64,000 nucleotides of DNA from Clostridia bacterium (GCA_017461385.1 JAFTXZ010000002.1:38221-102220), one strand, 5' to 3'; shown: positions 4,711 through 56,990, counted from the stretch's first letter. Made by a program: numbers and translations. The notes: generated by a model not told the origin, from the sequence alone.

Positions 4711-6138
4711 TTAAGCCATCAAGCTATTGTATGACTCATAGGTGTAAAGACTGCCTTCCGTGGGCTTTGTCGGTTGTAGATAAGTAACCTTATCGTTGTC
4801 TATTACGTATCCACCGAGAGCAAGCTGTACGCCTCTGAGCTCATCAGATTCAAAGCCTGTTACTTTGATTGCAAAAATATCATAGTCATGCTTAGAAAAA
4901 TCTACGCTTGCAACCTTATTTGCAGATGTGCCGTCTGGATTTATGATTTCCTTATCAATCTTTTCCTCGCCAACTGTTTCCTGTGCGTTTTGCTTAGCTA
5001 CTGCAAATACACCATAGATTAGCTTTTCGCCTGTTGCTGTCTCGTAGTCAAGGATAGCGTCGTGGTCTACAAGGAAGCTAATAGAAACACCTCCGTCTGC
5101 GTATTCCTGCAGAGAGTAACCAAGGCACTTGAACAGAGGATTAAGGGTTACCTCCTCGTAGCATTCACAATTTACGCAACCGCTTCTCATATATCCGTTT
5201 TCTGTATAGCCATTTTCGTATTTTGCAATGGTTTGGTTATTGTGGGAGTCCTTTGCCTCTTGAAGAAGGGTCGAGCATCTTTGACATAGCAAGGCGGTTG
5301 TGCAGTCACCGTCGTCATCGCCTGCGTGACTACCCTCATAGTATGCATCACAATGGTTTACGTATGTAATATTGCTTGGCTGATAGGTCCAAGTAGCGTG
5401 GTCGCTTGCAGTACCTGTAAATTGAACGGTATGAGATGACCAGTTGGATACCTCATAGGTGGTTACGGATTTCGGAACTACAAGTGTAAGATTCAAGCTA
5501 ACGAAGGCATTAGCTTGAATTGTTTTAAGATTTTCAGGCAATTTGATATAGGTAAGCTTTCGACAGTTATAAAAGCCAGTTGCGTAAAGCGTTTCAATTT
5601 TTGAACCTGCCTCGAAATCAATTCCTACCAGGTTACCACAGTTATAAAACAAGCTTTGGTAAGAATTTCCACTTGGTTTGATGAGTCCTAAAACACTTGC
5701 CGGAATATACAAGTAACAAATCGGTGAGCCTTGAAATACAAAATCGAAATATTCAGGTCCATTGCCGTCTTTGTGAGTAAGTCCCTCAAGATTGGTAGCG
5801 ATAATGTTACCAAATTGGTTTGGACCTGCCATTAATCCTGGGTAGGAGTAGCAAATTCTGTAACTGTCGTTTACGTATGCTGCATCCTTTGTTTTAACAC
5901 TTACTATGTAGTAGGTTGTGCTTCCGTCAACGTACTCAAAATAGGTGCCCTCACTTGGCTTTTCGGTTACACGATACCAGGTGAGTGCCTCACCCTCGCC
6001 GTCTGTGGTGGGCAATACAATTGAATTGCCGCCTGCGTCATTGATTTTAATATCTACGTCCTTGGCAGATACAACGACGGTCAACATCATAACGCAAAGA
6101 ACCGACATTAAAAGAATGAAAAATAATTTTCTTTTCAT
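4711..6138 (-). CDS. Secreted BspA-type LRR protein with Cys/His cluster and conserved C-terminal domain
   Basis: Start reassigned to MKRKLFF (RBS GAGG); signal peptide; LRR_5-like repeat FYNCRKLTYIKLPENLKTIQANAF; C-terminus paralogous to 9448-12330. Confidence 0.8.
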   Translation of the reverse strand: MKRKLFFILLMSVLCVMMLTVVVSAKDVDIKINDAGGNSIVLPTTDGEGEALTWYRVTEKPSEGTYFEYVDGSTTYYIVSVKTKDAAYVNDSYRICYSYPGLMAGPNQFGNIIATNLEGLTHKDGNGPEYFDFVFQGSPICYLYIPASVLGLIKPSGNSYQSLFYNCGNLVGIDFEAGSKIETLYATGFYNCRKLTYIKLPENLKTIQANAFVSLNLTLVVPKSVTTYEVSNWSSHTVQFTGTASDHATWTYQPSNITYVNHCDAYYEGSHAGDDDGDCTTALLCQRCSTLLQEAKDSHNNQTIAKYENGYTENGYMRSGCVNCECYEEVTLNPLFKCLGYSLQEYADGGVSISFLVDHDAILDYETATGEKLIYGVFAVAKQNAQETVGEEKIDKEIINPDGTSANKVASVDFSKHDYDIFAIKVTGFESDELRGVQLALGGYVIDNDKVTYLQPTKPTEGSLYTYESYNSLMA

Positions 6139-6215
6139 TGTAAATTCCTCTCTTGTGAAAAATTTGTTGAATTGTTTTCTATGATATGCTAAAATGATAC
6201 TAAGGTGGTGATAAT

Positions 6216-7031
6216 ATGAGCTTAATGTCAAGGCTTGAGGAAAAGAATAAAAGAGTCCATTACATAAGCTACGACAGTAGCTTGCCTATTTGTGTTATGG
6301 AAATTGGTTGGGAAATTACTAAGCCTAACCATACCTGGACACCCAACGGACGGCCAAGGTATCTTATTCATATGATTAAAAGGGGTAAAATAACCGTAAC
6401 CCGTGCAAATGGTGAAATTACGCACCTTAGCAAGGGGGATTCCTTTATAAACGCACCCGATGAAGCAAGCACAATGAGGTCGGACTCAGAGGAGGGCTGT
6501 GAATACTATTGGCTTGGCTTTAACGGTAGCCATGCTAAGCCATTTTTGGAAAAAACCACTAAAAGCTTATATCCCAAATATAAGGAAAGCGGTATAGTGA
6601 CTGTTAGTGAGCTTCTTGAAAGCGCAGTTGTCGACCCAATCGGCACCCTTTGTGCTCTTTTTAAGGTTTTTAACGCAATTAAGGACGAATCTCCCTCGGA
6701 GGAAAACGACTTCGTCAATAAGGCGATTTTATACATTGAAAGCAACTATCACAAGAGCTTCAACGTAGAAAAATATGCAAAAAGCATAGGCGTTTCCCGC
6801 TCCTACTTCACTACGTCGTTTACTGAAAAAACGGGTATGTCTCCCTATAGCTTCCTTATCAACGAGCGAATTGAAAATGCGAAAAAGTATCTTTCAAAAA
6901 GCGACCTTACAATTACACAAATTGCAACGAAGGTGGGCTTTAGCTCAATTGATAGATTCAGTAGTGTTTTTAAGGAAAAAACAGGTATGTCTCCTAAAAA
7001 ATATAGAATCTCCATTAAAATTTTACCATAA
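6216..7031 (+). CDS. AraC-family transcriptional regulator (possibly controls melA)
   Basis: N-terminal cupin-like domain (EYYWLGFNG) and double HTH SDLTITQIATKVGFSSIDRFSSVFKEKTGMSPKKYR. Confidence 0.92.
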   Translation: MSLMSRLEEKNKRVHYISYDSSLPICVMEIGWEITKPNHTWTPNGRPRYLIHMIKRGKITVTRANGEITHLSKGDSFINAPDEASTMRSDSEEGCEYYWLGFNGSHAKPFLEKTTKSLYPKYKESGIVTVSELLESAVVDPIGTLCALFKVFNAIKDESPSEENDFVNKAILYIESNYHKSFNVEKYAKSIGVSRSYFTTSFTEKTGMSPYSFLINERIENAKKYLSKSDLTITQIATKVGFSSIDRFSSVFKEKTGMSPKKYRISIKILP

Positions 7032-8876: not shown

Positions 8877-9260
8877 ATGAAAATTAGAACGGATTTTGTA
8901 ACCAACTCAAGTAGTAGCAGCTTTGTAGCAATAACAATAATAACAAAGGACAACGAGGAGTTTTATGGTAAGCTTTCCCTTGAAAGTCCAAGAGAAGCAA
9001 TCGCCTCTGAATACACAGAAAAGGAAGTTGAAAAATATCTTGACGAGAAAATGAAAAGCGTTAAAAACGGACAGGATATTTGCAATTTACTTCTTTACCT
9101 AGTTGATACAGAGGTTCACGAAAGTGGAGACTATTATATTGAGCTTGATGATATTTTGGAAATCAAGTCGCTTGACGGTGTCGACAGAATTGATTTTGAG
9201 CTAGGCTATAGAGACTACTATGATGACGACCAAGTAAAGGGTACGTATAAACTGAGATAA
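8877..9260 (+). CDS. Small acidic protein with MKIRTDFVTNSSSSSF N-terminal motif
   Basis: RBS AAGGAG, own promoter (TTGCAA 8815-17 bp-TACAAT) and terminator; first 18 aa identical to 13527-15011. Confidence 0.85.
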   Translation: MKIRTDFVTNSSSSSFVAITIITKDNEEFYGKLSLESPREAIASEYTEKEVEKYLDEKMKSVKNGQDICNLLLYLVDTEVHESGDYYIELDDILEIKSLDGVDRIDFELGYRDYYDDDQVKGTYKLR

Positions 9261-9266
9261 CAAACG

Positions 9267-9298
9267 AAAAGGCTTGAGGAGGTTCCCCAAGCCTTTTT
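9267..9298 (+). terminator. Intrinsic terminator
   Basis: AAAAGGCTTGAGGA-GGT-TCCCCAAGCCTTTTT hairpin. Confidence 0.75.
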
Positions 9299-9379
9299 AT
9301 TTCGAGTTTTAATCTTGATTAGGTTGAAAGGTATTGTGCAAATCTAACAAAAATGAGCTATTTTTCTTCTTTTTTGTTG

Positions 9380-9414
9380 ATGTTGTTGACTTTTCCACAT
9401 ATCTGTTGTAATAT
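9380..9414 (+). promoter_or_regulatory. Sigma-A promoter of the LRR gene
   Basis: TTGACT(9386)-17 bp-TAATAT(9409), 33 nt upstream of the ATG. Confidence 0.7.
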
Positions 9415-9447
9415 TATGATGAATAAATATTATATAAGGAGAAAAAT

Positions 9448-12330
9448 ATGAGAAAGAAAGTTTTACTTTTTGTGGCACTTCTTTCATTACTTGCTTGCAT
9501 TTTCGCAATGGGCATTAGTGCAGCAGACTTTGAAAGTAACTACACAACCGAGGTAACAACATTCTATGATGCTGACGGTGTTACAGAGTTGTTGCCTACG
9601 TGGGCAAACGTAACTGACAAGGAAGCAACCGCAGTAATTAAAAAGGCTGATGGTAATGCAGTACGTATTCCTGCCTACTATGTTGTTAAGACAAATGGCG
9701 CAAGCTTTAACAAGGAAGGTACAAATCTAGACTTTTCATGGATTACTGAAAAGCTTGGCGAGGAAATTACAGTAGCAAATCTAGTTGCACTTGATGTACC
9801 AAATGACTTTACAAGCTTTAGTGGTGGAATTTCAACCACATACTTCCCAGCACTTGAGGAGCTTGTAATTCCTACAAGCGTAACATCCTTGGGACAAAGC
9901 ATGTTTAGAAACAACACTGTTATTAGGAAGGTATTCGTAAGGCAAGTTGTTGATGCTGATGGCAACGTACAGGGAGTTACTAGGCTACCTGGCTGGTTTG
10001 CTGATATAACCAATGGGTCTACCTCACATCTTGAATCCTTTGACTTTGAGCTTGATTATGTAACATCCATAGGAGATAGAGCGTTCGATAATTCTGCAAT
10101 TAAATCGTTTACAGTTAAAGCTCCTATGACAAGCTTGGGCAATACTGCATTCAATGGCTGTAAGTATCTTGAAACTGTTAGTATTAATAATACAGCAGAT
10201 GTTATAGGTCCTGTCAGCACACTATTCCAAGGTTGCATTAACATAAAAAGTATAAATTTGAATGGCATTTCCATAGGAGGTTACTTTTTACAAAATGCAA
10301 ACGCATTAACAGAGGGTGGATTGACTCTTATTGCAACAAACGTGGCATCAATTTCAGCCGAGGCGTTTAAGAAGGCTGTAAATCTTTCAAACGTTGATAT
10401 TTCTGGTCCAATCACTTCGATTGGTAATAGCATATTCTTGGAATGTAAAAATCTTACCAATGTAAGAATATATAATGAGCTTGAAACTCCTGCCACAGGT
10501 GGAAATAGCTTATGTGACAATCTTGCTACTGACAAGTTAACCTCAGTGGTGCTTCATGGTATTTCTATTGGAAACTATGCGTTCCGTAACCTTGGTCAAA
10601 ACACAAGCTTAACAAGCGAGTGTACAGTTGTTGCTACAAACATTGGATCAATAGGAACAGAAGCATTCAAAAATGCAGATATAATAGTAAGCATATACGT
10701 TGAGGGTCCATTTACCTCAGTTAATAGTGGTCATGTTTTCCGTGACAATGGTAAGCTTAAGGAGCTTACAATTATAAACACTGGTGACACTCTAGTAACA
10801 ATGGGCAATGGTGAAGTAAACCCTGAGCTTACTGATTTAACAATTAAGGGTAAATTTACCCTAGGTACCATGGAAAATTCAGGTAACCCATTGTTTCAAC
10901 AGAACTCAAAGCTAAAGAACGTATATCTTGGAACGGGTGTTCAGTCCATCGGTCAAAAAGCGTTCTATAAGTGCTACGCACTTGAAAAGGTGCATCTTGC
11001 AGATACAATTACCCAAATTGGCGACAGAGCCTTTGATTTTGAATCTGCTAACGTACAGACAAGTGAGACCTTTACCTTCGTTGACGAAAACGGCAATATG
11101 GATAATACCTTGCCAACCTCGCTTACATATATCGGTGGTCACTTCCTAAAGAGAATTAAAATTGCAAATACTGAGTTAATTTTCCCAGAGTCCTTTACAA
11201 ATCATGATTCTGACCAAGACTATGATTTTGAAGACACAATCTTACCAGCAAACTTTAGACTAATTTACCTTGGTAAAATGACAGCGATAGACCTACGTAT
11301 GCTACAAAATAGTAACGTAACTGTTTATTTAACCAAGAATAGTGCAAGTGAGCTTACAAATCCAATTGTTTATGCTTACATTGACGGCACAACCATTTCA
11401 GATAATGGTGGTGTATATTTTGGCACAAACACCAATGGAACATTGACACTTACACTGAACGACTACGTTAAAAACGGATTAAATCCTTCAGAATATATTA
11501 AGTACTACTTCTGTGGTAGCGATGAGGTTGTTTTCCTAACAAGAAGAAATATACCTAAGGGCGAGGGCACAAGCGCTTCATGGGATAACTTCGTTACAAC
11601 CCCTGTAACCTACGCACAGCTAACTGCTGCAGGCGTTACAATTGACAAGCACCCAATTTTAAGTGCGCCAGCCTTCTCACCAGCAACCTGCACAGAGGAT
11701 GGTGGAATCAAGACCTACTGCTTAGGCTGTGGACAAATTGCAAGCATTGAAAAGACAGAGGATGCACTTGGTCATAACTTTGACTATATCAATAGTGCTG
11801 AGGCAAAGCTTATAGCGATTGCTTACGCAAGCTATGATAAGATGGGTACAAAGACAGTATCCTGTGGTAACTGTGGCGAGCATGAGGAATTTGATGCAGC
11901 TGCTCTCTTTGTAAATCAAGGCTTCTCACAGACCGAGTACGAGGCTGGAAGCATTTTGATTAGCTTTGTAATAAATCACAAAGCACTTGATGAGTACAAG
12001 CAAATAACAGATAATGAGTTAACCTATGGTATCTTTGCAATAGCACAACAAAATGCACAAGATGAAAATAGTGTTGATAAGGAAATTGTAAATGCAGACG
12101 GCACAACTATAAAGGGTGTTGCAAGTGTTGATTTCTCAAAGCATGATTACGATATTTTCGCAATCAGAATTACAGGCTTTGAAACAGACGGACAAAAGGA
12201 CGTACAGCTAGCCCTTGGTGCTTACGTAATTGAAAACGGCAAGGTTTCCTACCTACAGGAAGGAAAGCCTGCAGATGGTCAGCTTTATACCTACGTTTCA
12301 TTCAATAGCCTAGCAAGCTACTTTGCTTAA
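9448..12330 (+). CDS. Large secreted BspA-type LRR surface protein
   Basis: Signal peptide MRKKVLLFVALLSLLACIFAMGISA; many LRR_5 repeats (SIGQKAFYKCYALEKVHL); ATCTEDG...CxxC motif; shared C-terminal domain. Confidence 0.88.
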   Translation: MRKKVLLFVALLSLLACIFAMGISAADFESNYTTEVTTFYDADGVTELLPTWANVTDKEATAVIKKADGNAVRIPAYYVVKTNGASFNKEGTNLDFSWITEKLGEEITVANLVALDVPNDFTSFSGGISTTYFPALEELVIPTSVTSLGQSMFRNNTVIRKVFVRQVVDADGNVQGVTRLPGWFADITNGSTSHLESFDFELDYVTSIGDRAFDNSAIKSFTVKAPMTSLGNTAFNGCKYLETVSINNTADVIGPVSTLFQGCINIKSINLNGISIGGYFLQNANALTEGGLTLIATNVASISAEAFKKAVNLSNVDISGPITSIGNSIFLECKNLTNVRIYNELETPATGGNSLCDNLATDKLTSVVLHGISIGNYAFRNLGQNTSLTSECTVVATNIGSIGTEAFKNADIIVSIYVEGPFTSVNSGHVFRDNGKLKELTIINTGDTLVTMGNGEVNPELTDLTIKGKFTLGTMENSGNPLFQQNSKLKNVYLGTGVQSIGQKAFYKCYALEKVHLADTITQIGDRAFDFESANVQTSETFTFVDENGNMDNTLPTSLTYIGGHFLKRIKIANTELIFPESFTNHDSDQDYDFEDTILPANFRLIYLGKMTAIDLRMLQNSNVTVYLTKNSASELTNPIVYAYIDGTTISDNGGVYFGTNTNGTLTLTLNDYVKNGLNPSEYIKYYFCGSDEVVFLTRRNIPKGEGTSASWDNFVTTPVTYAQLTAAGVTIDKHPILSAPAFSPATCTEDGGIKTYCLGCGQIASIEKTEDALGHNFDYINSAEAKLIAIAYASYDKMGTKTVSCGNCGEHEEFDAAALFVNQGFSQTEYEAGSILISFVINHKALDEYKQITDNELTYGIFAIAQQNAQDENSVDKEIVNADGTTIKGVASVDFSKHDYDIFAIRITGFETDGQKDVQLALGAYVIENGKVSYLQEGKPADGQLYTYVSFNSLASYFA

Positions 12331-12335
12331 CAACT

Positions 12336-12363
12336 AAAAAAGCCGACGATGTCGGCTTTTTTT
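12336..12363 (+). terminator. Intrinsic terminator
   Basis: AAAAAAGCCGAC-GAT-GTCGGCTTTTTTT. Confidence 0.85.
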
Positions 12364-12443
12364 ATTTATATATTGCGTGAGAAAGAAAAATATGATAATA
12401 TAATTGTATAATAATTGAAGTCTTAGTGGAGGAGGAATGAAAA

Positions 12444-13514
12444 GTGAGATATATAATAGATGATAAAAAATATAATTTCAAGTCAGCCTTCGACACTAAA
12501 ACAGGGGCATACGTAAGAACGGGAATTCTTGATGAAAATGGAAAAGACACAGGAATTGACCCATTTATGGCATCTTACCCACATTTGATTGACGTTGGGA
12601 TTATGGGACATTGCATTCACGGGAAAACAGGACTTTGCGCCAAGGCTGGTATTGGATGCTATCAAAGTGGACTAACCGTCGAGGAGCCCAATATGACCCT
12701 TGAGGATTTTCGCTCAATTGCAGAGCAATCGAGGGGAAAATGTAATCAATTTGCATTAGGTGGCAGAGGCGACCCTGACCAGCATGAGCATTTTGAGGAA
12801 ATATTAAAAATATGTAGAGAAAATATGCTTGTGCCAAACTTTACTACCTCTGGCTACGGTATGACTCTCCAAATAGCAGAGCTATGCAAGGAATACTGTG
12901 GAGCTGTGGCGGTTAGCTGGTATAGAAGCAAATATACGTACTCAGCCATAGAAATGCTTCTTTCTAAGGGAGTAAAAACTAATATTCACTACGTTTTAGG
13001 TAAAAATTCAATTGACGAAGCGATAATAAGACTTAAGGGAAATGATTTTCCAAAGGGCATAAATGCGATAATATTTTTACTACATAAGCCTGCAGGGCAG
13101 GGCTCAAGGGAAAACGTTTTAGATTTTGACGACCCACGGGTCAGGGAGCTTTTTAAGCTAATCGAGGCGCCACACCCCTTCAAGGTTGGTATGGATAGCT
13201 GTAACGTGCCTGGAGCAATAAATTTTTGCACTAGAATCGTGCCAGAATCCCTTGACACCTGCGAGGGTGGTCGCTTCAGCTGTTATATTGGGGCTGATAT
13301 GATAATGGTGCCCTGTAGCTTCGACCAAGAAAGAAAATACAAGGTAAGCTTAAGAAATCATACAATTGAGCAGGCGTGGAACAGCAAGGAGTTTGAAGAG
13401 TTTCGTAATATATTAAGAAACGCTTGCCCAAGCTGTGAAAAAAGAGAGCTCTGTATGGGTGGATGCCCGCTTATGAAGGAAATAGTTTTTTGTAAAAGCT
13501 CAAAACGCTTATAG
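12444..13514 (+). CDS. Radical SAM protein with SPASM domain and non-canonical Cx7Cx6C motif
   Basis: CIHGKTGLCAKAGIGCYQ, ALGGRGDP (GGE-like), NFTTSG; SPASM-like CEGGRFSCYI...PCSF and CPSCEKRELCMGGCP; GTG start after GGAGGAGG. Confidence 0.88.
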   Translation: MRYIIDDKKYNFKSAFDTKTGAYVRTGILDENGKDTGIDPFMASYPHLIDVGIMGHCIHGKTGLCAKAGIGCYQSGLTVEEPNMTLEDFRSIAEQSRGKCNQFALGGRGDPDQHEHFEEILKICRENMLVPNFTTSGYGMTLQIAELCKEYCGAVAVSWYRSKYTYSAIEMLLSKGVKTNIHYVLGKNSIDEAIIRLKGNDFPKGINAIIFLLHKPAGQGSRENVLDFDDPRVRELFKLIEAPHPFKVGMDSCNVPGAINFCTRIVPESLDTCEGGRFSCYIGADMIMVPCSFDQERKYKVSLRNHTIEQAWNSKEFEEFRNILRNACPSCEKRELCMGGCPLMKEIVFCKSSKRL

Positions 13515-13526
13515 AAAGGAATTCGT

Positions 13527-15011
13527 ATGAAAATTAGAACAGATTTTGTAACCAATTCAAGCAGTAGCTCATTTGTAGCAGTAATTGCCACAAAGAAAAA
13601 TGGAGAGGTAGTAAGGGGCACACTGGATTGTGGAACCGATTACTACGAAATTCCATTGATTGAGGGAAGCCTTGATGAAAATATGGACTTGTTTAAGGAC
13701 GCAATTCAAGGCTCAAGAGACGCCTTTGATTTTTGCGATAAGCTATATAGTGAGCTTTTGAATATTTACCACACTGCCCACGATAATCTGTATCCCATTC
13801 GTGAAATGGAAACGTTTGAGGAGCTTGAAGCAATTCAGATAAAGGGAGAGCAAAGCGGCTCAAGCTACGGGCATTTTGATTACACCTACAATTTCAGCAC
13901 TCAAGAGGTTAGTGGAAATATGGACTACAAGGGTGGCTATGAGGAGCCGGATGGACGTGGCTTTATAGAAAAGCGCTGTAATTATAAGGGCGAGCTTGAC
14001 CGAGAGGGCACCTTTGAAATTGTTGACGGTATTTTGAAAAAATATAACGGACATGAATCTGATATAATCGTGCCGGAGGGAGTAGTGGGCATAGGCGTGT
14101 GTGCCTTTTCCCTAAACAGTGAAATAGAAAACGTATATCTGCCTGACACAGTAAAGTATATTGACGCACTAGGCTTTTTCCATTGCTCAAGGCTAAAAAG
14201 AATAAATCTGCCAAACGGACTTGAAAGACTGGGAAAAAGCGCCTTTGCTGGTTGCTCAAGCATCAAGAAGCTGGAGCTACCAGATAGCCTGTTTGAGCTG
14301 GATATAGAATGCTTTAAGGAAATGAAAAGCCTAAAGGAAATCGAAATTCCAAGTGGCGTTACAGAAATTCCATTTGAAGCCTTTGGAAGCTGTGAAAAGC
14401 TTGAAAGAATTTTATTGCCAACGGGCATTGAGAAAATTGACGAGTATGCATTTGGCTGGTGTTATGGCTTAAAGGAAATACGCTTCCCAGAGGGCTTGAG
14501 GGAGCTAAACATTAAGGCTATGTGTTGCTGTGACAATATAGAAAGAGTATATTTACCAAGCACGGTAGATGACGCCTGCGCAAGCGCCTTTAACGACCTA
14601 AAGCATCTAGAGGCTATTTTTGTAGATGAAAATAACAAGCATTACAAATCAATAGATGGAGTTTTATATACAAAGGATCTAAAAAGACTTATTAAATATC
14701 CAAGAGCAAAAAAGGAAGCTGAGTATATAATCCCAACTGGGGTTAAGTATATTTCAGAATATGCCTTTATGGAAGCAAAGGAACTTGAAACGCTTTCCTT
14801 GCCACAGGGGCTTGAAAGAATCGGCATTGATGCGTTTTCCTGCTGTAAGGGTATTGACAGAATAGAGCTTCCAAACAGTATAAAAAGCGTTAGCCATGGT
14901 GCCTTTGAGGGCTGTAATAGCCTTGATGAAATCGTAATCCCCAAGGATTTTCAGCTTGATGAGGAAAGCTACGACTACTGGCGCGAGGATATGAAAATTA
15001 CTAAAAGGTAA
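13527..15011 (+). CDS. MKIRTDFVTNSSSSSF-domain protein fused to BspA-type LRRs (no signal peptide)
   Basis: N-terminal motif shared with 8877; about ten LRR_5 repeats and a YKSIDGVLYTKDLKRLIKYP insert; starts 12 nt after the radical SAM stop. Confidence 0.88.
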   Translation: MKIRTDFVTNSSSSSFVAVIATKKNGEVVRGTLDCGTDYYEIPLIEGSLDENMDLFKDAIQGSRDAFDFCDKLYSELLNIYHTAHDNLYPIREMETFEELEAIQIKGEQSGSSYGHFDYTYNFSTQEVSGNMDYKGGYEEPDGRGFIEKRCNYKGELDREGTFEIVDGILKKYNGHESDIIVPEGVVGIGVCAFSLNSEIENVYLPDTVKYIDALGFFHCSRLKRINLPNGLERLGKSAFAGCSSIKKLELPDSLFELDIECFKEMKSLKEIEIPSGVTEIPFEAFGSCEKLERILLPTGIEKIDEYAFGWCYGLKEIRFPEGLRELNIKAMCCCDNIERVYLPSTVDDACASAFNDLKHLEAIFVDENNKHYKSIDGVLYTKDLKRLIKYPRAKKEAEYIIPTGVKYISEYAFMEAKELETLSLPQGLERIGIDAFSCCKGIDRIELPNSIKSVSHGAFEGCNSLDEIVIPKDFQLDEESYDYWREDMKITKR

Positions 15012-15019
15012 AAGTAATA

Positions 15020-15811
15020 ATGAAAAACGTACTTATAACAGGAGCCTTTGGTGGAATGGGAATGGCTACTGCAAAAATGCTTAGTGCACAGGGCGTGCGT
15101 ATTTTTGCTTTAGATAAAAAAGTCTCTCAGGCTGATAGTGGCATAATTCCTATTGAGGCAGACGTTACCTCTGAGGAAAGCATAAAAAATGCATTTTCCA
15201 CAGTAAGCAGATATACGGACTCTCTTTGCGCAATTATTCACTACGCAGGGGTTTATATGCTTGACTCGCTGGTGGAAATGGAAAACGAGGATTTTCGACG
15301 CATTTTTGATATAAATATGCACGGTGTTTATTTAGTGAATAAGACCTTTATGCCTCTTATTAAAAAAGGAAGCAAAATTCTTATAACTACAAGCGAGCTA
15401 GCGCCCCTTGACCCATTGCCATTTACAGGTATTTATGCCATCACTAAGGGTGCCCTTGATAAATATGCCTACTCGCTTCGCATGGAGCTTCAGCTCCTTG
15501 GAGTTACTGTATCAGTGCTTCGCGCTGGCGCAGTTGATACAGGTATGCTTGACGTCTCTACAAGCGCCCTTGAGCGCTTTTGCGAAAAAACAAGGCTCTA
15601 TTCCTGCAACGCCACTCGCTTTAAGAAAATAGTTGACGGGGTAGAGGCAAGGCGCGTGATGCCTGAAAAAATTGCCAAAAAATCAATAAAAATAATTAGG
15701 AAAAAAGCGCCTCGCTTTGCGTATAGCATAAATAGAAATCCACTATTGCTTTTGCTAAATGCACTGCCCAAGAGACTACAGCTTTTCGCAATTAGAAAAA
15801 TATTAAAATAA
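15020..15811 (+). CDS. SDR family oxidoreductase
   Basis: TGAFGGMG Rossmann motif, YAITK catalytic YxxxK. Confidence 0.9.
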   Translation: MKNVLITGAFGGMGMATAKMLSAQGVRIFALDKKVSQADSGIIPIEADVTSEESIKNAFSTVSRYTDSLCAIIHYAGVYMLDSLVEMENEDFRRIFDINMHGVYLVNKTFMPLIKKGSKILITTSELAPLDPLPFTGIYAITKGALDKYAYSLRMELQLLGVTVSVLRAGAVDTGMLDVSTSALERFCEKTRLYSCNATRFKKIVDGVEARRVMPEKIAKKSIKIIRKKAPRFAYSINRNPLLLLLNALPKRLQLFAIRKILK

Positions 15812-21520: not shown

Positions 21521-23218
21521 ATGAATTTTACATCTTCAATAAATGATACATTAAGAGCCGAAAACCATCAATATTATGAGGACTCCAAGTGCATTGAATG
21601 CGCGCCGGGGCTCGACGTTAAAAACGGTAGATGGGTAAAGGTTGACGAAATTAAGGAGCTTGAGGAGCTAATGTGGCCTGTTTACTTTGATAAGGAGCAG
21701 GACAGAGCCCTTATGCTGCCAATGTCCCACTGTATGCTGACAGGTAGTACGGGTACAGGTAAATCCGAGGTAATTGTAAAGAATATTTTATCCCTTCTTT
21801 CTAATTACAAGGATGAAAAGAAGCCATCTTTTATGGTTACTGACCTTAAGGGTGATATCTCTGAACAGCTTGGCGAGAAGCTAATGGAAAGAGGCTATAA
21901 CGTATCGGTTTTAGATATGCGTAATTCCTTTGGCTCTGCAAGATATAATTTCCTTACTCAAATTTATGATGACTATCAGGAGGCAATGAGAATAAAGAAG
22001 GATTTGGCAAGCAACCAAATTACCTCTATATTTGACGGAGTTAAGTATGATTCTATAAAGGTTGCCCGTTCAAAGGCTACAATCAAATATCTAACACTCT
22101 TAGAGGGCGTTGAAAGAAGCGTGAATGAGCTTGCTATTATAATGGTTCCATGCGATGACCCTAAGAATAAATCCTGGGCAGACGGCGCAAGAACTATGTG
22201 TGAGGCGATTATGAGAACTATGCTTCGTGACTCTGAGGATCCAAGACTTGGAATGACAAGAGAAAAGTTCACAGTTGCTAACGTTGCAAGAATATCCTTC
22301 TCCACAGACGAAACCTGCTCAAAGATAATCTCTTGGCTGGAAAGGGCAGATGATATTCTCTGTGTAAGAAGTGCTCTTTCTGGTAACTATCGTCTATCTG
22401 CAAGAACAACAAGAGATGGCTACATAAGCACGCTTAATACACAGCTTGCACATTATGCAGCTGTATCAATAGCAGCTCTTACAGAAACTGCCGATGATAT
22501 TGATCTGAGAAAAATTGCAGAAAGTGATAAGCCTTATGCAATCTTCATAATCACTGACGACAGACAGGTTACTACAAATAACATCTGTATGATGTTTATG
22601 AACAACCTAATAAACGAGTTAACAAAGGCTGCAGACTCAAGAACTGAGCACTGCCTACCAAGAGATTTTATAATCCTGGCAGACGAGTTTGCGAATATGC
22701 CAGCGCTACCAAACATTTCTAACAAAATTACAACCCTTCGTTCGAGAAAAATCTGGATGATGATGGCAATTCAGTCTAATCAACAGCTGGATATGGTTTA
22801 TGGCACTAACCAAATGGAGATTTTAAGGGATAACTGCGACCTTCAAATATTTATAGGCTGTAACAATGACAAGACCAAGGAGGAGTTTGCACACTCTATG
22901 GGTCAGACCATAGGCTCTATAACCTCGTTTGCAATCTCTAATGACGGCTCAATCTCTGCTCAAAAGCAATCCAACAACGTTCCGGTTGTAAGAAGAAGCG
23001 ACCTTGACGCACTAGAGCTTGGCGAGTTTTATATTCGCTCAAGAAAGAGCCAGAATATGAGAAGTAGGATGACTCCTTACTTTATGCAAAGAGATAAGAA
23101 CGAAAAGCTTGCTCCAATAACAATAGTTCGTGAGTTTGATCCGAATGCAAATCGATATGATATTGCAGCTGTCCTAAAAACCTTAAGAGCTAAGCTTAAG
23201 GAATGGTACGATGATTAA
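21521..23218 (+). CDS. VirD4/TraG-like coupling-protein ATPase lacking transmembrane anchor
   Basis: Walker A TGSTGTGKS, VTDLKGDI, RYNFL, Walker B ILADEFANM, TLRSRKIWMMMAIQSNQQLDMVYG, NCD; no hydrophobic N-terminal helix. Confidence 0.85.
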   Translation: MNFTSSINDTLRAENHQYYEDSKCIECAPGLDVKNGRWVKVDEIKELEELMWPVYFDKEQDRALMLPMSHCMLTGSTGTGKSEVIVKNILSLLSNYKDEKKPSFMVTDLKGDISEQLGEKLMERGYNVSVLDMRNSFGSARYNFLTQIYDDYQEAMRIKKDLASNQITSIFDGVKYDSIKVARSKATIKYLTLLEGVERSVNELAIIMVPCDDPKNKSWADGARTMCEAIMRTMLRDSEDPRLGMTREKFTVANVARISFSTDETCSKIISWLERADDILCVRSALSGNYRLSARTTRDGYISTLNTQLAHYAAVSIAALTETADDIDLRKIAESDKPYAIFIITDDRQVTTNNICMMFMNNLINELTKAADSRTEHCLPRDFIILADEFANMPALPNISNKITTLRSRKIWMMMAIQSNQQLDMVYGTNQMEILRDNCDLQIFIGCNNDKTKEEFAHSMGQTIGSITSFAISNDGSISAQKQSNNVPVVRRSDLDALELGEFYIRSRKSQNMRSRMTPYFMQRDKNEKLAPITIVREFDPNANRYDIAAVLKTLRAKLKEWYDD

Positions 23219-32071: not shown

Positions 32072-34948
32072 ATGCCAGATATGAAGATAAAATACAGTGG
32101 TGGCGAAAACGTTGACGTTAAGTCAAGGCTTGAATCTGTTAAGCCTGTGCCACTAACTGATGTCAGAGCAAATCAGGTGTCCTATGTTGAGGTGCTTGAC
32201 AAGTATGACGACATGGAAATGAGAATAGATGTCAATTCCTTCGAAAAGACCTTTTCAACAGGGGACTACGGCATCGAGTACAATGAGGATATACACACAA
32301 CGGGACGTGTAATTCTTGACGAGCAGTACGAGGCTGCAAAATACTTTATGAAAAACCTTCGTGGCTTCGGTGTATTGGCAGATACAGTTGGATCTGGTAA
32401 GACCTACGAGGCAGGACTCGTTTTATCAGAGCTTGCAGCTGCCGGTAAAATTGAAACAATTTTGATAATTGCTCCAAACAAGGACCTTTTGAAAAAGTGG
32501 AAAAAGACCCTTGAGCTTGAGTTCGGTATGGGTAAGGACACAATTGTCGAAAAGGAAACTGAGTTCAAGAACATAAGAGCAGAGTTTGAGGAGGAAAGAC
32601 TTGGCAATACCTATTTGCTCAAGCCAAAGCAGCCTATAATCGTTACAAAGGAAAACTTTGTAAAATGGGACCTCAATCTTGTTAAGAGCTTGCTATTCGA
32701 TGTAGTTGTAGTAGATGAGGCACATTATCTAAACGATGAGGAGGGGGACGGAGCTATTGCTCTGAGAAACCTTTCCTACCTTATGAGAAACAAGCAGCTT
32801 AAGAATAAAAACTATTGTATTCTTCTAACTGCTACACCTCACTCAGGTAACCTTGCAAAAATGTTCAATCTTTGGTACTTCGTTGCTGAAAAGGGTGGCG
32901 TTCCAAGCGACTTTGACGGCACAAACGTTGTTAAGAGTGAGAAGTACAAGCGCAGAAAGGAAAAGTTCGTAAACGCTTGTAGAGGAGCAGAAACAGTTTC
33001 TGAATTCCTTGCCACCACAAAGGAGCAAATGTTTGAGGCGAACGATGAAATTCTTGAGGCCTTCTATGCATACCTAAGAGAAAGAGGAATTGCAGATTAT
33101 AACGAGGCAAGTAAATGGGATAAGAGAAAATATCAAAATGAATTTTTGTCTCTTGAAAAGAATCAAGAAATTAACAGAGAGCTTTTGAAAAACGTTTCAA
33201 GAGCCTACTACGATAACGTTTTGGGTGTAATCATGAGAAGAAACACACAAAACGAAAAGTCAACGATTAGAGCGAAAAAGGTTGTTACAAACATTTATAT
33301 TTGTCCAACCACAGAAAAGACGCTTGAAAGACGACAGGCTGAGCTTAAGGCATCAAGTAAAAACGGTATTATAGCTGACTTAAACGATATTTACGGCGAC
33401 GAGGCTTTAACTGTTAATAAGGGCAATAAAACCTACAAAACCTCACTTGAGGAGTATTACAAGGAGAACCCAAATAACTCAAAGGCAGAGATTATGTTTA
33501 CAAAGGTTCTCACAAAGCAGCTTCTTGAAATGGGAGTGGGAAGCCCATTTGAGCATGCGGAGAGCTTGAAGTATTACTGGTCACAGCTTGAAAGAACCGA
33601 AAGAGACCCTAACACAGCTGAAACAAACAACCAATTTAGAATAATGACCAACTACGATAGCGAAAATGAGGATGCAACAATCCACTTTAAGCTTAAGGAG
33701 CTAAAGAAAATATTCCTTGATAATCCAGACGACAAGATAATAGTTTTCTTTGACTACGAAAGAAAGAATAATAAGACCAAAAATGCAGAGTGGTTTAAGG
33801 TTTATGATGAGCTATCTAAGGACGAGGCGTTTAAGGACAGATTAATTCTTGCTCTAAACGGCACAGATGCAGTTGATAGCTACAATAAAATTGATAATGC
33901 AATCTTCCTTTCAGGCTCTGAAAGATATACTGAGGGTGTAGATATGCAAAGCGGACACATTGTAGTAAACTTCTCCGTAACCTGCGACCCACTTGCAATG
34001 TCTCAAAGAGTTGGTAGAGCATACAGACTAGGACAAAAGAATAACGTTCAAATCATATCTCTTGCTATGATGAATGAGCTTGAGGGCTATGCACTCGCAT
34101 ATCAAACTCGTATAGGACTTCTTTCCACCAACGAGGGTGACGCTACTATTATTGCTGGTAGTAACAGTGAAAAGATGATTGCTCTTGAATGCAGAGTTTG
34201 TCACAAGACAAAGCTTATGTCAAAGAAGGAATACGATGAGAAATACAAGTCGGGAGATAGCTCACTATACTGTACAAAGCCTGAGTGTGTAAAGCAAATA
34301 GGCGCAACCGCAAAGGGAATGCCATTATCAATCATCAACTCACAAGAGTATAAGTGCTCTGCCTGTGGCGAAAAGCTAAGGAAAAGCACACAGGGTGATT
34401 CTGGCTACTACTGTATCTCAGTAAATAACTCCTTTAAGGGAAAAATGTTCAATATTGATACTGGTGAAAGTGGATATAAGACAGTAATCGGCTGTTCTAA
34501 GCTTTGTGTAATCAAGCACTGTAAAAAGATTGCGTCCTTTGGTAAGAATGGCAATCAAGGTGTGCCATGTGCAATTATTGAAGGAAATATTACGAATGCA
34601 AACGAGGGTAGAGTTGCCTGTGTAAGATGTGCAAACTACAAAAACGGACTTTGTGCTCCTGAATGTACAATGAAGGAAAAGGACAAATTCGATGCTTGTG
34701 GACAATGTACCTACGCAGATTGCTCACCAAGACCACACAAGATATACTTTGACGAAAATAGCGTGGCAGAATGCCCATCCTGTGGCAGAGGTAAGCTAAG
34801 ACCTGTTACAGCAAACACCTTCGCTTCATATATTCGTCAATCCTTCGAGCACAACAAGGGAGATGCAAACGAAAGCACCTTCTGTGAAACTCTATTGCAG
34901 GAAACAAACGGCGTAGAGGAAATTAAGAGAATTCTTGAGAATAACTAA
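32072..34948 (+). CDS. SNF2/RapA-like (YqhH-like) SF2 helicase with Cys-rich C-terminal region
   Basis: LADTVGSGKT, DEAH, TATP, EGVDMQ, QRVGRAYRLGQ; many CxxC pairs in the last ~250 aa. Confidence 0.9.
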   Translation: MPDMKIKYSGGENVDVKSRLESVKPVPLTDVRANQVSYVEVLDKYDDMEMRIDVNSFEKTFSTGDYGIEYNEDIHTTGRVILDEQYEAAKYFMKNLRGFGVLADTVGSGKTYEAGLVLSELAAAGKIETILIIAPNKDLLKKWKKTLELEFGMGKDTIVEKETEFKNIRAEFEEERLGNTYLLKPKQPIIVTKENFVKWDLNLVKSLLFDVVVVDEAHYLNDEEGDGAIALRNLSYLMRNKQLKNKNYCILLTATPHSGNLAKMFNLWYFVAEKGGVPSDFDGTNVVKSEKYKRRKEKFVNACRGAETVSEFLATTKEQMFEANDEILEAFYAYLRERGIADYNEASKWDKRKYQNEFLSLEKNQEINRELLKNVSRAYYDNVLGVIMRRNTQNEKSTIRAKKVVTNIYICPTTEKTLERRQAELKASSKNGIIADLNDIYGDEALTVNKGNKTYKTSLEEYYKENPNNSKAEIMFTKVLTKQLLEMGVGSPFEHAESLKYYWSQLERTERDPNTAETNNQFRIMTNYDSENEDATIHFKLKELKKIFLDNPDDKIIVFFDYERKNNKTKNAEWFKVYDELSKDEAFKDRLILALNGTDAVDSYNKIDNAIFLSGSERYTEGVDMQSGHIVVNFSVTCDPLAMSQRVGRAYRLGQKNNVQIISLAMMNELEGYALAYQTRIGLLSTNEGDATIIAGSNSEKMIALECRVCHKTKLMSKKEYDEKYKSGDSSLYCTKPECVKQIGATAKGMPLSIINSQEYKCSACGEKLRKSTQGDSGYYCISVNNSFKGKMFNIDTGESGYKTVIGCSKLCVIKHCKKIASFGKNGNQGVPCAIIEGNITNANEGRVACVRCANYKNGLCAPECTMKEKDKFDACGQCTYADCSPRPHKIYFDENSVAECPSCGRGKLRPVTANTFASYIRQSFEHNKGDANESTFCETLLQETNGVEEIKRILENN

Positions 34949-46489: not shown

Positions 46490-49400
46490 ATGAATAAAAA
46501 CGAGGTACTAAACAAGTATATTATCGAATTCCTCCACGTTGAGGAGGAATCCACTAATAGAATGATGGACTTGTATGGTACAGGAAAGTCAAGTAACCTA
46601 ACCATTGAGCTAGGGGATACTATGCCTGACCAAACAAGATTGTATTGTCGTATTGCAAGAATAATAAAGGAAAGAATAGGAAGACCGGCAGGAATTGCTC
46701 TAAGAGATAGCTCGCCACAAAAGGGAGTAGGTAACTTTGATGAGATAAATATTCTTGACTGGACCATTTCCAAGTATGAAAATGCCGACCTTGATACTAA
46801 GGTGAAGCTTCTTACAAAAATGGCAAATAGCTCCCTTGCAGAGCTAAAGCAAAAGGGAGTAAACTCCTTGTTCTTGTCCGTTGGCGCAATTAAATGGGAC
46901 GTGCCAGACCCAGATGACAATACACGATTTGTGAGCATTACAACACCATTGCTTATTTTCCCAATTAAGCTGGTGCGTTCAGGTAATGCTATGCCATATT
47001 GCATTGAGTTTGTGGCAGACGATATAAGATTAAATCCTTGTCTTATTGAGAAAATTGCCCGTGTTTATAGCAGGGAAACTGCCGACAAGCTACCGCTTCC
47101 AGTGGCAACGGAGGGCGCTGTTAATATTGCTGAGCTAGACGTGGAGCAATATTTTGCAAGCATTAACACCTTCATAGGTGAAAGCTTTAGAGATGCTCGC
47201 AGAGAATTTGCTTTGCAAAGCAATAAAATTGCAATTTCAAACTTCAACAGCATTGATATTGCAATGTATTACGACCTAATTAACCATAAAAAGGAGCTTG
47301 AGAGTAGCAGAATGATTGAAAAGCTATTCACAAGCGTTGACAGAGTAGATAATGAAATTATCGAAAAGCCACTTATCACTCTGCCTGCCGACACAGTGCA
47401 GGAGGGTATTCTTGCAAGAGCAGTTAATAACGACGACCTTATTATCAAGGGTCCTCCGGGCACAGGTAAAACCTTGACAATCGCTAACCTTGTTGCTTCA
47501 CTTATGGGCGCTGGTAAAAAGGTAATGTTCGTTTCTGCTAAAACCTCAGCCCTTGCCGAGGTATGCAATAAGCTTCCAGAGCATCTACGCCCATTTGTGC
47601 TAGAGCTATTCTGCGAAAGCGAAACCGAAGCTGCAAGCTTCAACGTAAACGACCTTATTGCTTCACTAAGAAAAGCAAGAGATGCAGAGCCTGTAAAGGA
47701 TATAGGACTTCTTAAGCAAGAAATCCAAGGCTATCAAAACAGCAAAAAGGATGCAGTTAGATATCTTGACGCATATAAGCGCTTCTATTTTACAGACCCA
47801 AATCCATTCACAGGTCGTGCCTTCTATTCAACAATCAATAATGCCCTTGTGTACAATGGCAACCCAAGATTAAGAGAGGCGTTTATTGGCAGAACCTCAA
47901 GAATTACCGTTGAGGACTACAATAAAATGCACGGCAAGGTTGAGCTTTGCGAGGCTAATCTAAATAATATCACAAATAACGGTGAAAAAATCGCAACCCT
48001 TAGTCCTTGGTATGATGCAGAAATAGCCGTTTCTCCAACCGCTATCGAGGGTGAGATTAACGACATTAAGGAAACTCTAAGGGATATATCTGAAAAGATA
48101 ACTGCCTTTATGAAGGAGCTTGGAATTGAGGATAAAAGAGATGAAATATCCCTTGCTCTATTTTCAAGAATTGTAGAGGCTGACATCAGCAAGGACAATA
48201 TTCAAAGAATTATAGAGGGAAGCATTCGCCCCTCGGTTATGCAAGCACTAAAGGAAAAAACAAGAGAGCTTGTTACTAACGATTTATTAAACGAATGCTT
48301 TAACTACGTAGTAAAGAACAAAATCACTATTAAGACAGATGATGAGCAGGGCTTAAGCGGACTTCTTGATGAGCTTGGTCAAGCAAGCTCAAATAAGAGC
48401 GCTAAGGAGCTTTTGGAAATCAAGAGCGCTATTGAAAAAATGAACCTTGCAGTGTCCGACTCCTGCGACGTGGTGCTTGACGTGTTTGAAAGCTACAGCA
48501 AAAAGGATGAGGAGCTGGACGAGGCTCAAAGAGCGTTAGATTTACTCGTTCCTGTGGTGGGCAAGCAAAGGGAAGCTCGTTATGAGCTACTGAATACTCA
48601 CTCACAAACGCTTTCTAAGTATTCTAAAAAGGATATGAAGAAGTTCTCCTTGTTTGAGGGTAAGGCTAAAAAGGCGTATGAGGAAATTTCCAGACTTCCA
48701 ATTGGCAAGGTACCGACTATTAATGAGGTAACTAAGGCTTGCGAAATCTTCGATGGTTTTAAGGTGATTGAGGCTGAAAAGAAGCAAATATTTACAAGAT
48801 TTGTTGAAATGTTCGGCGATGAGGTTACAGAAAAAGACGTAGCAAGCGTTGAGGAGTTTATCTCTGGCTGTGAGAGCAGAGAGGAAAAGAAAAAGCTTCT
48901 GAGAAGCTTGCTTGAGGAATCAAGGCTTGTGGAGGAAACTCTTGGACTCGTTACAAGTCCACTTGAAAGAGTGAGCGAGGAGCTAAAGTGTAAAACTGCT
49001 GACGAGCTTGCTGACGTGGTCCTTGGCGCTATCGAGCGTGCTAAGATTGAAAAGCTATACGAGACAGCCTGCAAGGAGCTTGGTCTTGTTGGTATGGATG
49101 AGCTTGTAAGTCTTGAAACGCCTGAAACGATTATTTGCATCAAGGAGCTTAGCGAATATATCGTGTTAAACGATACAAGAGCTACTGCAATTTTTGAGTT
49201 TATTAAGCAAAGAGATGATGTTGGTAAGGGATTGATTAAGCTTGAAAGAATGGCTATGAAGTATGGACTCAATCCAATTTATCGTAGCATTTCTAAGCTA
49301 ACCCTTGTTGATATAGATCGCTTTGTTGAGGATATTGGCGATGCCAGAATCAGCAACGCCTGCCTACAGCTTAAGGCGACTATGGACGAGGATAATATCG

Positions 49401-56103: not shown

Positions 56104-56105
56104 TA

Positions 56106-56990
56106 ATGAGTAAGCTAATCGTAAGTGAGGAATTCCTTTCACAGATTGAGCTACTCCAAATGATGATAAAGAATAACGTTGCTGGACAGTTTGGAGGAAA
56201 TCACCGTAGTAAAACCTACGGCTCGTCCTGCGAATTTGTCGACCATAGAGACTACATGGAGGGAGACGACATTTCAAAGATAAATTGGAATGCCTACGCC
56301 CGCTTTGACAAGCTATATCTGAAGCTATTCTTAGACGAAAGACAGATGCATACAAGAATTTACATTGATGCAAGTCGCTCTATGCAATACGGGGATAGCA
56401 AAAAGGCAGAGCAGGCTATTAAGGTTGCAGCAACGCTAGCATATCTTTCGGTTTGTGAAATGGATAAGGTTTCCGTCTATGCTATTACAGGTGGCAGGGT
56501 TGAGGAAATCATAAGTGGCATGGTAGGAAAAGAAAGCTACCTTGCCTCAATAAATAAGCTAAACGACATAGTATTTGAGGGCGAAAGTCGTATCAGTGAG
56601 GCAATTTTGCCATCACGTGTTGGATATGGCGACGGTATGTCCGTAATTATCTCAGACTTCTTGACAGATGAGGATTACGAAAGGGCAATCGACCACTTAA
56701 GTGATAAAAAGCGTCACGTGCTGTGCGTTCAGCTTTTGTCAAAGGAGGAGCTAAATCCACAAATTCGTGGAAAGCACCATCTGTATGACTCTGAAAATAT
56801 AGAAAAAACCTATAGAAAGAATATCGACAGAGAAAGAGCAAGAGCCTATAAGGAAGCGCTAAAGTACGTAACCGATAGAATAGGCAATCATTGCGCAGCT
56901 CGTGGGGCAGATTATATTCTTGCCAGTGCAGAGGACACAATGCAACAGATATTCTTTGATAAGCTAGCTTCTAGGGAGGTACTCAAATGA
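56106..56990 (+). CDS. DUF58 domain protein (vWA-like)
   Basis: GSSCEFVDHRDYMEGDDISKINWNAYAR, IDASRSM, VIISDFL. Confidence 0.92.
   Translation: MSKLIVSEEFLSQIELLQMMIKNNVAGQFGGNHRSKTYGSSCEFVDHRDYMEGDDISKINWNAYARFDKLYLKLFLDERQMHTRIYIDASRSMQYGDSKKAEQAIKVAATLAYLSVCEMDKVSVYAITGGRVEEIISGMVGKESYLASINKLNDIVFEGESRISEAILPSRVGYGDGMSVIISDFLTDEDYERAIDHLSDKKRHVLCVQLLSKEELNPQIRGKHHLYDSENIEKTYRKNIDRERARAYKEALKYVTDRIGNHCAARGADYILASAEDTMQQIFFDKLASREVLK

Follow-up and report, generated by a model that had tools for sequence, protein, structure and literature searches.

A radical-SAM-type enzyme accompanied by proteins with a shared N-terminal tag: a candidate protein-modification system of gut bacteria and phages

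Two open reading frames (ORFs) of a Clostridia bacterium start alike and then lose all resemblance, and one of them begins just past the gene of an enzyme of the radical SAM (S-adenosylmethionine) type. What ties these three genes together is the question raised by the locus. The genes reside in a window of 64,000 nucleotides (nt), the whole stretch of DNA analyzed (GCA_017461385.1, JAFTXZ010000002.1:38221-102220). The two ORFs, 8877-9260 and 13527-15011, encode proteins of 127 and 494 amino acids (aa), and both open with MKIRTDFVTNSSSSSFVA. The first 16 residues are called here the tag, and the remainder of each protein the body. Data from bacterial and phage loci point to an undescribed protein-modification system. 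The enzyme encoded by ORF 12444-13514 belongs to an uncharacterized, probably horizontally mobile family, whose cognate partners are proteins starting with the tag, and it probably modifies them.

Association of the enzyme with tagged proteins

The first 18 residues of the 127-aa and 494-aa proteins are identical. Within the 54 nt coding for them, 6 bases are different; they fall in 4 codons (ACG/ACA, AAC/AAT, AGT/AGC, AGC/TCA), and all changes are synonymous; one Ser codon is AGC in one ORF and TCA in the other. When the first 18 residues were removed, no similarity between the two proteins was detected by BLASTP (best E 1.5), and a folded domain common to both was discarded on this basis. 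Identical N-termini with synonymous differences, followed by divergence, had been reported in the original prediction; codon comparison and BLASTP bear this out. The motif is found in just these two ORFs of the 1.54-Mb genome, and the pair formed by enzyme and tagged ORFs is set there among housekeeping genes.

Eighty bacterial loci encoding the enzyme at 68–83% identity were scanned in six frames with a 24-residue tag profile. One or more tagged ORFs were found in 76 of them: 55 loci have 1, 11 have 2, 8 have 3, 2 have 4, and 4 have none. In two of the untagged loci (L042 and L063) the sequence stops at the enzyme gene. Most of the 102 tagged ORFs counted lie downstream of the enzyme on the same strand (86); 14 are upstream of it, and the other strand carries 2. 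Measured from the enzyme stop codon, the start of the first downstream tagged ORF is at a median distance of 11 nt (64 loci), and within 60 nt in 58 of the 64. Clustering of all the 756 ORFs of the 80 loci revealed no third recurrent gene.

The association was also analyzed in the reverse direction, in 401 genomes drawn evenly from the class of the window, 399 of which were scored for the enzyme (E ≤ 1e-20). These genomes are kin and represent a single class, and therefore counts are given, and no statistic. The enzyme was found in 10 of the 399 genomes, and a tagged ORF resides within 2 kb of it in all 10. A strict back-translated tag pattern matched 7 of the 401 genomes, all enzyme-positive (control pattern, 0). 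A broad pattern matched 11, the 10 enzyme-positive genomes plus one, G031 (control pattern, 1); the match in G031 translates as KHQIDFVRNCSS, which is not a tag and looks like a chance hit. A loose DNA pattern matched 144 of the 401 genomes, about as many as its control, and was discarded. The finding named beforehand as fatal to the pairing, a motif common in genomes lacking the enzyme, did not materialize, since no true match was found in the 389 scored enzyme-negative genomes. Co-occurrence and adjacency strongly support the notion of a variable protein family defined by its N-terminus and tied to this radical SAM clade.

Diverged enzymes follow the same rule. Those of three loci (L083 to L085; 37–44% identity) still adjoin an ORF of 127–143 aa opening with a close tag variant, and a 35%-identity enzyme carried by an Agrobacterium tumefaciens conjugative plasmid is also found beside such an ORF. 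On this plasmid, pAt2 (L091, 24051-35040), the divergent pair is next to a SMEK-domain protein and a site-specific integrase.

Sequence of the tag

The tag conforms to the consensus M-K-h-R-x-[DG]-F-V-[TS]-N-S-S-S-S-S-[FY]. In 80 aligned tagged N-termini, residues M1, K2, V8, T9, N10, S11 and S12 are invariant, R4, D6, F7 and S13 are kept in at least 90%, and conservation ends at residue 16. The exact 16-mer was identified in 51 ORFs, encoded by 43 distinct DNAs, and Ser codons of both classes, AGY and TCN, are used at positions 12–15. Because exact tags are encoded by many synonymous DNAs, selection acts on the peptide rather than on the DNA. A DNA or RNA element lying beneath the tag is ruled out by the same synonymous variation.

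A search of 1.84 billion representatives with the tag profile (E ≤ 1e-3) retrieved at least 16,248 clusters at 50% identity. Of the 150 best representatives, 143 have a match that begins with residue 1. A hydrophobic core is missing from the tag, and a transmembrane (TM)-like stretch follows it in none of the 150; a Sec or Tat signal peptide was rejected on these grounds. In three Clostridia ORFs (L082:5077, L087:3971 on the minus strand, and L088:5072) a membrane-like hydrophobic segment occurs right after the tag, in front of a 477–716-aa body of no family. The N-S-S sequence was considered as an N-glycosylation sequon, and discarded because no recurrent glycosyltransferase is encoded nearby in the 80 bacterial loci. 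Five predicted proteins (P0132, P0133, P0135, P0139, P0142) carry two tags each, and the internal one always begins with Met. They may correspond to tandem genes merged by the gene caller, or to true fusions, perhaps from phages with reassigned stop codons.

The enzyme

The enzyme matches Pfam SPASM (PF13186; E 7.7e-6, 26.5 bits against a cut-off of 21.5, residues 273–331) and TIGR04085 (31.6 bits against a cut-off of 27, residues 273–345), both above threshold, and features a CX2CX5CX3C array plus further Cys residues for two auxiliary clusters. Of the radical SAM/SPASM label originally given to it, the SPASM part is thus borne out by profiles. The radical SAM part needs qualification. CX3CX2C, the canonical motif for binding of the SAM-cleaving 4Fe-4S cluster, is missing from the window enzyme, which features CX7CX6C instead, and PF04055 gives no match at E ≤ 0.01. 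Some relatives 80% identical to it bear a precomputed PF04055 label, and the radical SAM maturase model TIGR04317 matches residues 64–162 (E 6.6e-9), far under its own cut-off.

In an alignment of 74 enzyme sequences (mean column identity 83%) the loop residues C57, C65 and C72, as all the SPASM Cys residues, are invariant. CX3CX2C occupies the same aligned place in relatives of 35–39% identity. It follows that the three cluster ligands have been kept and their spacing altered, and that the loop has been remodelled within a true radical SAM lineage. Loop variants include CX3CX3CX6C, an intermediate form found in L085, and CX7CX2C, found in the protein KP15_135 of Klebsiella phage KP15. The sequence ALGGRGDP (residues 104–111), at the putative GGE-type SAM-binding position, is invariant or nearly so. 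The AF2 model of the enzyme (pLDDT 91.3, pTM 0.90) contains six strand-helix units in an alternating core; a conserved N-terminal extension of three strands, seen in both alignment and model, precedes this core. Searches of the Protein Data Bank (PDB) with a sequence profile retrieved as sole solved relatives SuiB (E 1.2e-4), SkfB (3.4e-4) and PqqE (4.7e-4), all peptide maturases. An odd variant is encoded by a phage (L101:6429-8786). This 786-aa enzyme hosts an intein-like insert of about 430 aa exactly within the putative GG(R)GD SAM-binding motif; the insert begins with Cys and ends with His-Asn followed by Cys, and the cluster loop of the protein is CxCx3Cx3C.

About 4534 relatives of the enzyme were counted at 90% clustering. 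Enzymes about 70% identical were found on long contigs or in isolate genomes of Bacteroidota, Chloroflexota, Actinomycetota and Bacillota. In a tree of the family, a quick version with long basal branches used for descriptive purposes only, the sequences of Bacteroidota, Chloroflexota and Actinomycetota nest among those of Bacillota, and six phage sequences form one clade. Both the nesting and the distribution among phyla would fit a horizontal spread of the enzyme.

Proteins following the tag

Tagged ORFs of bacteria encode proteins of 76–1203 aa (median 265). Pfam families were sought in 75 of the 108 bacterial tagged ORFs, near-duplicates and cut ORFs being left out. No family was assigned to 51; 12 contain LRR_5 and 8 BRCT domains, and TIR_2, HIRAN and a PQQ-type propeller were found in 1 each. 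Similarly, the best 150 representatives include 58 of at least 200 aa, of which 35 belong to no family, and 11 contain LRR_5, 5 BRCT, 5 HIRAN and 1 RCC1 domains. LRRs had been proposed to serve the tagged proteins as target-binding modules. The LRR_5, BRCT, HIRAN and propeller domains agree with this view, but most bodies are small and acidic and belong to no known family.

Isoelectric points (pI) were computed for small tagged proteins (70–260 aa), the tag being removed. The median pI is 4.3 in bacteria (96% below 5; n=51) and 4.4 in viruses (93% below 5; n=222), against a median of 5.2 in other viral ORFs of like size (43% below 5). A PDB search with a sequence profile of the small tagged proteins gave no matches at E ≤ 1.

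Bodies change fast relative to the enzyme. Locus pairs were grouped by enzyme identity, using those loci (56 of 75) whose first downstream ORF is complete. Adjacent bodies are unrelated in 0 of 19 pairs when the enzymes are at least 95% identical, in 71 of 86 pairs at 85–95% identity, and in 569 of 579 pairs at 75–85% identity.

Phage loci

Enzyme relatives are encoded by 261 stretches of IMG/VR contigs. The best 80 loci (52–79% identity, mostly on contigs of 70–250 kb) were analyzed, and tagged ORFs were identified in 74, in arrays of 1–8. Arrays of three are the commonest (33 loci), the largest has eight. All the 270 viral tagged ORFs are on the strand of the enzyme, and their median length is 143 aa. 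According to PHROGs, phage genes around the viral pairs encode DNA polymerase, HNH, methyltransferases, endolysin and integrase; DNA methyltransferases are contained also in the phage loci that were fetched. In one phage (L094:6157-15126) the enzyme and six tagged ORFs interrupt a series of genes for NAD salvage (NadR-like, PnuC, nicotinamidase-like, phosphoribosyltransferase, NMNAT, NAD synthetase).

The set is found also in cultured T4-like phages; neither the phage loci nor the CX7CX6C loop had been anticipated in the original prediction. Klebsiella phage KP15 encodes an enzyme homologue (KP15_135, 27–31% identity) and two proteins, KP15_97 and KP15_102, which open with a G-F-V-S tag variant; a distant enzyme and two tagged genes are likewise present in E. 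coli phage phT4A. Among cultured phage records, relatives of KP15_97 occur in 174 and the enzyme homologue in 168, with a nearly equal split by host genus. KP15_97 weakly matches (E 8.1e-10) a PHROGs family labelled head-tail adaptor. Between the two tagged genes of KP15 (L103, 65500-72000) lies the gene of KP15_100, a protein of 738 aa with an annotated MIDAS (vWA-type) site.

The window and other genomic settings

Features of the window locus are listed in Table 1.

Table 1. Coordinates of the enzyme gene, the tagged ORFs and associated features in the window
Feature	Position	Strand	Remarks
127-aa tagged protein	8877..9260	+	small acidic body (pI 4.3 with the tag excluded) after the 16-residue tag
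N-terminal tag MKIRTDFVTNSSSSSF of the 127-aa protein	8877..8924	+	
Promoter-like site ahead of the enzyme gene	12377..12404	+	consensus scan, 10/12 matches; weak evidence
356-aa radical-SAM-type enzyme with SPASM domain	12444..13514	+	Pfam SPASM, TIGR04085
Cluster loop C57-x7-C65-x6-C72, in place of CX3CX2C	12612..12659	+	
SPASM region: C253, C273, C280, C291, C328-x2-C331-x5-C337-x3-C341, C350	13200..13493	+	
494-aa tagged protein	13527..15011	+	in order: tag, region of about 160 aa lacking family matches, LRR_5 repeats
N-terminal tag of the 494-aa protein	13527..13574	+	start 12 nt past the enzyme stop codon

The 494-aa protein is an LRR_5 protein (Pfam, E 4.6e-59; best stretch residues 178–292), and its start at 13527, 12 nt past the enzyme gene ending at 13514, is as originally described. 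Full-length relatives (38% identity) were found in L014 and L018, there too after the enzyme gene. Neither the tag nor the 127-aa protein has a match in Pfam, NCBIfam, PADLOC or PHROGs. Close relatives of the 127-aa protein are 74–100% identical, and past these the N-terminal region alone is in common; matches in the ESM Atlas score 0.88–0.89 and are to be taken as leads only. One terminator-like hairpin belongs to the 127-aa gene itself, and a second (12336-12362) precedes the promoter-like site of the enzyme gene; the consensus scan identified 23 promoter-like sites against 17.7 expected, and is weak evidence. Contigs of a gut metatranscriptome run (X1, contigs only) include pieces near-identical to 12615-12851, 13615-13865 and 14466-14693, which are at most a weak hint of transcription; the absence of cover over 9054-12458 in this run carries no evidential weight.

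A secreted 960-aa LRR_5 protein is encoded between the 127-aa gene and the enzyme gene (9448-12330, plus strand; signal-peptide-like N-terminus). By eye, its last 170 residues or so closely resemble the C-terminus of a 506-aa LRR_5 protein encoded at 4711-6231 on the minus strand. A secreted LRR_5/CotH protein of about 980 aa adjoins the system also in L014, L018 and L022. Downstream, 8 nt past the tagged LRR gene, starts a gene for an SDR-family reductase (15020-15811, plus strand), which does not recur beside the system elsewhere.

Further away, the window encodes a type IV secretion system (T4SS) coupling protein of the TraG/TraD type (21521-23215), followed by a long same-strand block (30036-53171) with several large proteins of no family. 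The block includes a ResIII/SNF2 helicase (32072-34945) and a helicase-nuclease made of DUF4011, AAA_11/AAA_12 and MTES_1575 (46490-51100). Coupling protein and block look like a mobile element or a defence island. A MoxR-type AAA_3 ATPase, DUF58, BatA and two VWA proteins are encoded in a row at 55093-61520, as in Bat/aerotolerance-type operons.

Genes recurring in the neighbourhood of the bacterial pairs encode SMC-like ATPases, SbcD-like phosphoesterases, UvrD plus PD-(D/E)XK nucleases, RNase_T exonucleases and WYL regulators. DEAD plus MZB helicases, NERD, type I restriction, C5 methylase, Fic, patatin and AAA-PDDEXK proteins were found as well.

Discussion

The enzyme and the tagged proteins are probably an enzyme and its substrates. 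Gene pairing, selection acting on the tag as a peptide, the rapid turnover of the bodies and the cofactor motifs of the enzyme are observed features of the system. The enzyme-substrate relationship is suggested by the near-obligate adjacency of the genes and by the location of the tag at a free N-terminus. It is suggested also by the solved SPASM relatives, which act on peptides that they bind, and by the many exchangeable bodies that accompany one enzyme. The N-terminal strand of any tagged protein, being free, would enter the active site of the enzyme, which would abstract a hydrogen from a residue of the invariant V-T-N-S-S stretch and install on the tag a post-translational change, such as an oxidation, a cross-link or an epimerization. 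The putative modified site is most likely the invariant N10-S11-S12; in the original prediction the NSSSSS motif was a candidate for modified site or leader. In this way one enzyme could mature a repertoire of otherwise unrelated proteins, in which the tag would be the common handle or warhead and the body the specificity part. The latter would be a binding module (LRR_5, BRCT, HIRAN, propellers), a TIR domain or a small acidic protein.

The presence of the system in large phages and in defence-type gene neighbourhoods suggests a role in phage-bacteria conflict, and this is the most likely use that we infer for it. A bolder version of the same idea is tentative. A widespread arms-race module, so far without a name, may exist, in which a single CX7CX6C enzyme chemically arms the extreme N-termini of exchangeable proteins, the tag acting as a universal warhead or handle; the repertoire would be made of small acidic proteins in phages, and of LRR, BRCT, HIRAN or TIR fusions in bacteria.

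Several observations weigh against tag modification and a role in conflict. Bacterial loci L024 and L066 have intact flanks, but no tag near the enzyme, and a tag is missing near the enzyme also in a few of the best 80 viral loci. A distance of about 20 kb separates the tagged genes of KP15 and phT4A from the enzyme homologue. The sequence past the tag is beta-strand-like; it may fold into the body and could limit the access of the enzyme. The tag is better conserved than the enzyme, as at 27–39% enzyme identity tags keep at least 11 of 16 residues, which hints at a possible constraint beyond enzyme recognition. The window enzyme has neither CX3CX2C nor a PF04055 match, so that SAM cleavage would have to be carried out by the CX7CX6C form. 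Binding, modification and its chemistry are predicted features. The defence or anti-defence role is predicted from neighbourhood and domain content only, and PADLOC-DB 2.0 has no model for the enzyme or the tagged proteins, the three window proteins matching 0 families.

The main alternative is a different function of the tag, which has a much lower, though appreciable, probability. The tag may be a docking peptide, by which tagged adaptors or sensors recruit or activate an enzyme acting on another target: a nucleotide, as viperins do, a nucleic acid, or a protein bound by the body. Most identifiable bodies are indeed binding modules (LRR_5, BRCT, HIRAN, propellers), several different tagged proteins accompany one enzyme, and the tag is conserved more than a mere recognition site requires. 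Divergent members of the family also match weakly the PADLOC pVip model (L084, E 9.2e-18), which may reflect the shared radical SAM core alone. Docking does not account well for the behaviour of SPASM enzymes with solved relatives, which act on the peptide they bind, nor for the tag being always at the extreme N-terminus, a location that suits threading into a buried active site. Moreover, no conserved gene for another substrate or a product handler is found nearby in the 80 bacterial loci.

It is unlikely that the tag is an N-terminal core similar to those of ribosomally synthesized and post-translationally modified peptides (RiPPs), to be modified, cut off and used as a signal or toxin, the body being a follower or a regulatory domain. 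Such a bioactive product would explain why 16 residues are far better conserved than the rest of the proteins; the nearest solved relatives are RiPP maturases, and small tagged ORFs are found directly before or after the enzyme in divergent systems. However, the 80 bacterial loci feature no recurrent protease or exporter, no conserved cleavage motif is found past residue 16 in the 80 aligned N-termini, bodies reach 1203 aa and include functional domains, and arrays of up to 8 precursors for one same peptide would be redundant.

A sorting signal for secretion, or for capsid packaging as in the T4 internal proteins, a diverse anti-restriction set described as having only the capsid targeting sequence in common (PMC3012670), with an indirect link to the enzyme, is very improbable: the system is common in large phages and KP15_97 weakly resembles a head-tail adaptor family, but the pair also resides on a plasmid and in bacterial chromosomes, beside housekeeping genes in this window, the tag has neither a hydrophobic core nor, in the 150 representatives, a following TM-like stretch, and the strict pairing with a radical SAM enzyme would be left unexplained.

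Modification of the tag by the enzyme is the likeliest reading. No description of the enzyme-tag pair was found in full-text literature searches, and papers outside those searched may exist; there is no model for the pair in Pfam, NCBIfam, PADLOC or annotated PHROGs. The system is large, with at least 16,248 clusters of tagged proteins and thousands of enzyme sequences, and its range includes Bacillota, Bacteroidota, Actinomycetota, Chloroflexota, an Agrobacterium plasmid, large gut phages and cultured T4-like enterobacterial phages. If the enzyme modifies the tag, a new radical SAM reaction at the protein level, performed with an unusual cluster-binding loop, would be at hand, as would a portable tag of 16 residues by which proteins could be directed to enzymatic modification. 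The arrays of small acidic phage proteins, candidates for anti-defence roles, would also be given a function. If the arms-race idea is true, both defence and counter-defence would follow a new logic, and the V-T-N-S-S site would probably be the target of a novel radical SAM chemistry.

Comparison with known systems

Prokaryotic viperins (pVip) take part in phage defence as radical SAM enzymes. Divergent members of the family described here weakly match the PADLOC pVip model, and the window enzyme has no PADLOC match. To our knowledge, viperins have neither a SPASM domain nor a tagged protein partner.

The VMAP ternary conflict systems of prokaryotes include a radical SAM enzyme with SPASM domain, for which modification of an FxSxx peptide effector has been predicted (Kaur et al. 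2020, PMC7159879). There, the FxSxx peptide is C-terminal, processed by a metallopeptidase and embedded in vWA-MoxR systems (PMC7159879). In contrast, none of the vWA-MoxR or metallopeptidase genes of VMAP, as described there, recurs beside the tag enzyme.

The T4 internal proteins are reported as diverse and fast-changing proteins with only a short N-terminal sequence in common, used against host defences (PMC3012670; Rao and Black 2010). The tagged proteins resemble them, as phage proteins that change fast and have only a short N-terminal sequence in common, and the likeness is an analogy alone. T4-type capsid targeting signals are cleaved by the prohead protease, and the proteins bearing them are packed in the head. 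No enzyme partner is known for the T4 internal proteins. The tagged proteins differ from them in being acidic (median pI 4.3–4.4) and in residing also in non-phage DNA.

Among the SPASM/twitch maturases of RiPPs (SuiB/streptide, SkfB, PqqE, the SCIFF maturase) are the nearest solved relatives of the enzyme, and in these systems the substrate gene adjoins the enzyme gene, as the putative substrate genes do here. The relationship is distant (E only about 1e-4). In contrast to the short peptides of RiPP systems, the partners are proteins of 76–1203 aa; the conserved part is N-terminal, from Met1, and no protease or exporter recurs. No PqqD-like RiPP recognition element (RRE) was detected by Pfam in the window proteins, and the system does not have the composition of a RiPP precursor and maturase cluster.

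The target of QhpD, a radical SAM enzyme of the SPASM type, is a protein subunit, QhpC (the gamma subunit of quinohemoprotein amine dehydrogenase), rather than a secreted peptide. QhpD has this single dedicated substrate, in which it forms Cys thioethers. QhpD and QhpC share with the present system the combination of a SPASM enzyme with a protein-level partner; they differ because the tag has no Cys, and because thousands of different bodies bear the tag.

The anaerobic sulfatase-maturating enzymes (anSME/AtsB), which form formylglycine in sulfatases, are radical SAM/SPASM enzymes that act on whole proteins; one enzyme serves many substrates by recognizing a short conserved motif, and Ser can be the target. 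The window enzyme scores 15.9 bits with TIGR03942, the anSME model, against a cut-off of 349.45, and the tag does not contain the C/S-x-P/A-x-R motif of anSME substrates. The two systems are alike in that one enzyme is proposed to serve many proteins through a short motif, with Ser present in both. They differ in the cluster loop, here CX7CX6C, and in the placement of the motif, as the tag is found at the extreme N-terminus and heads unrelated bodies rather than a single enzyme family.

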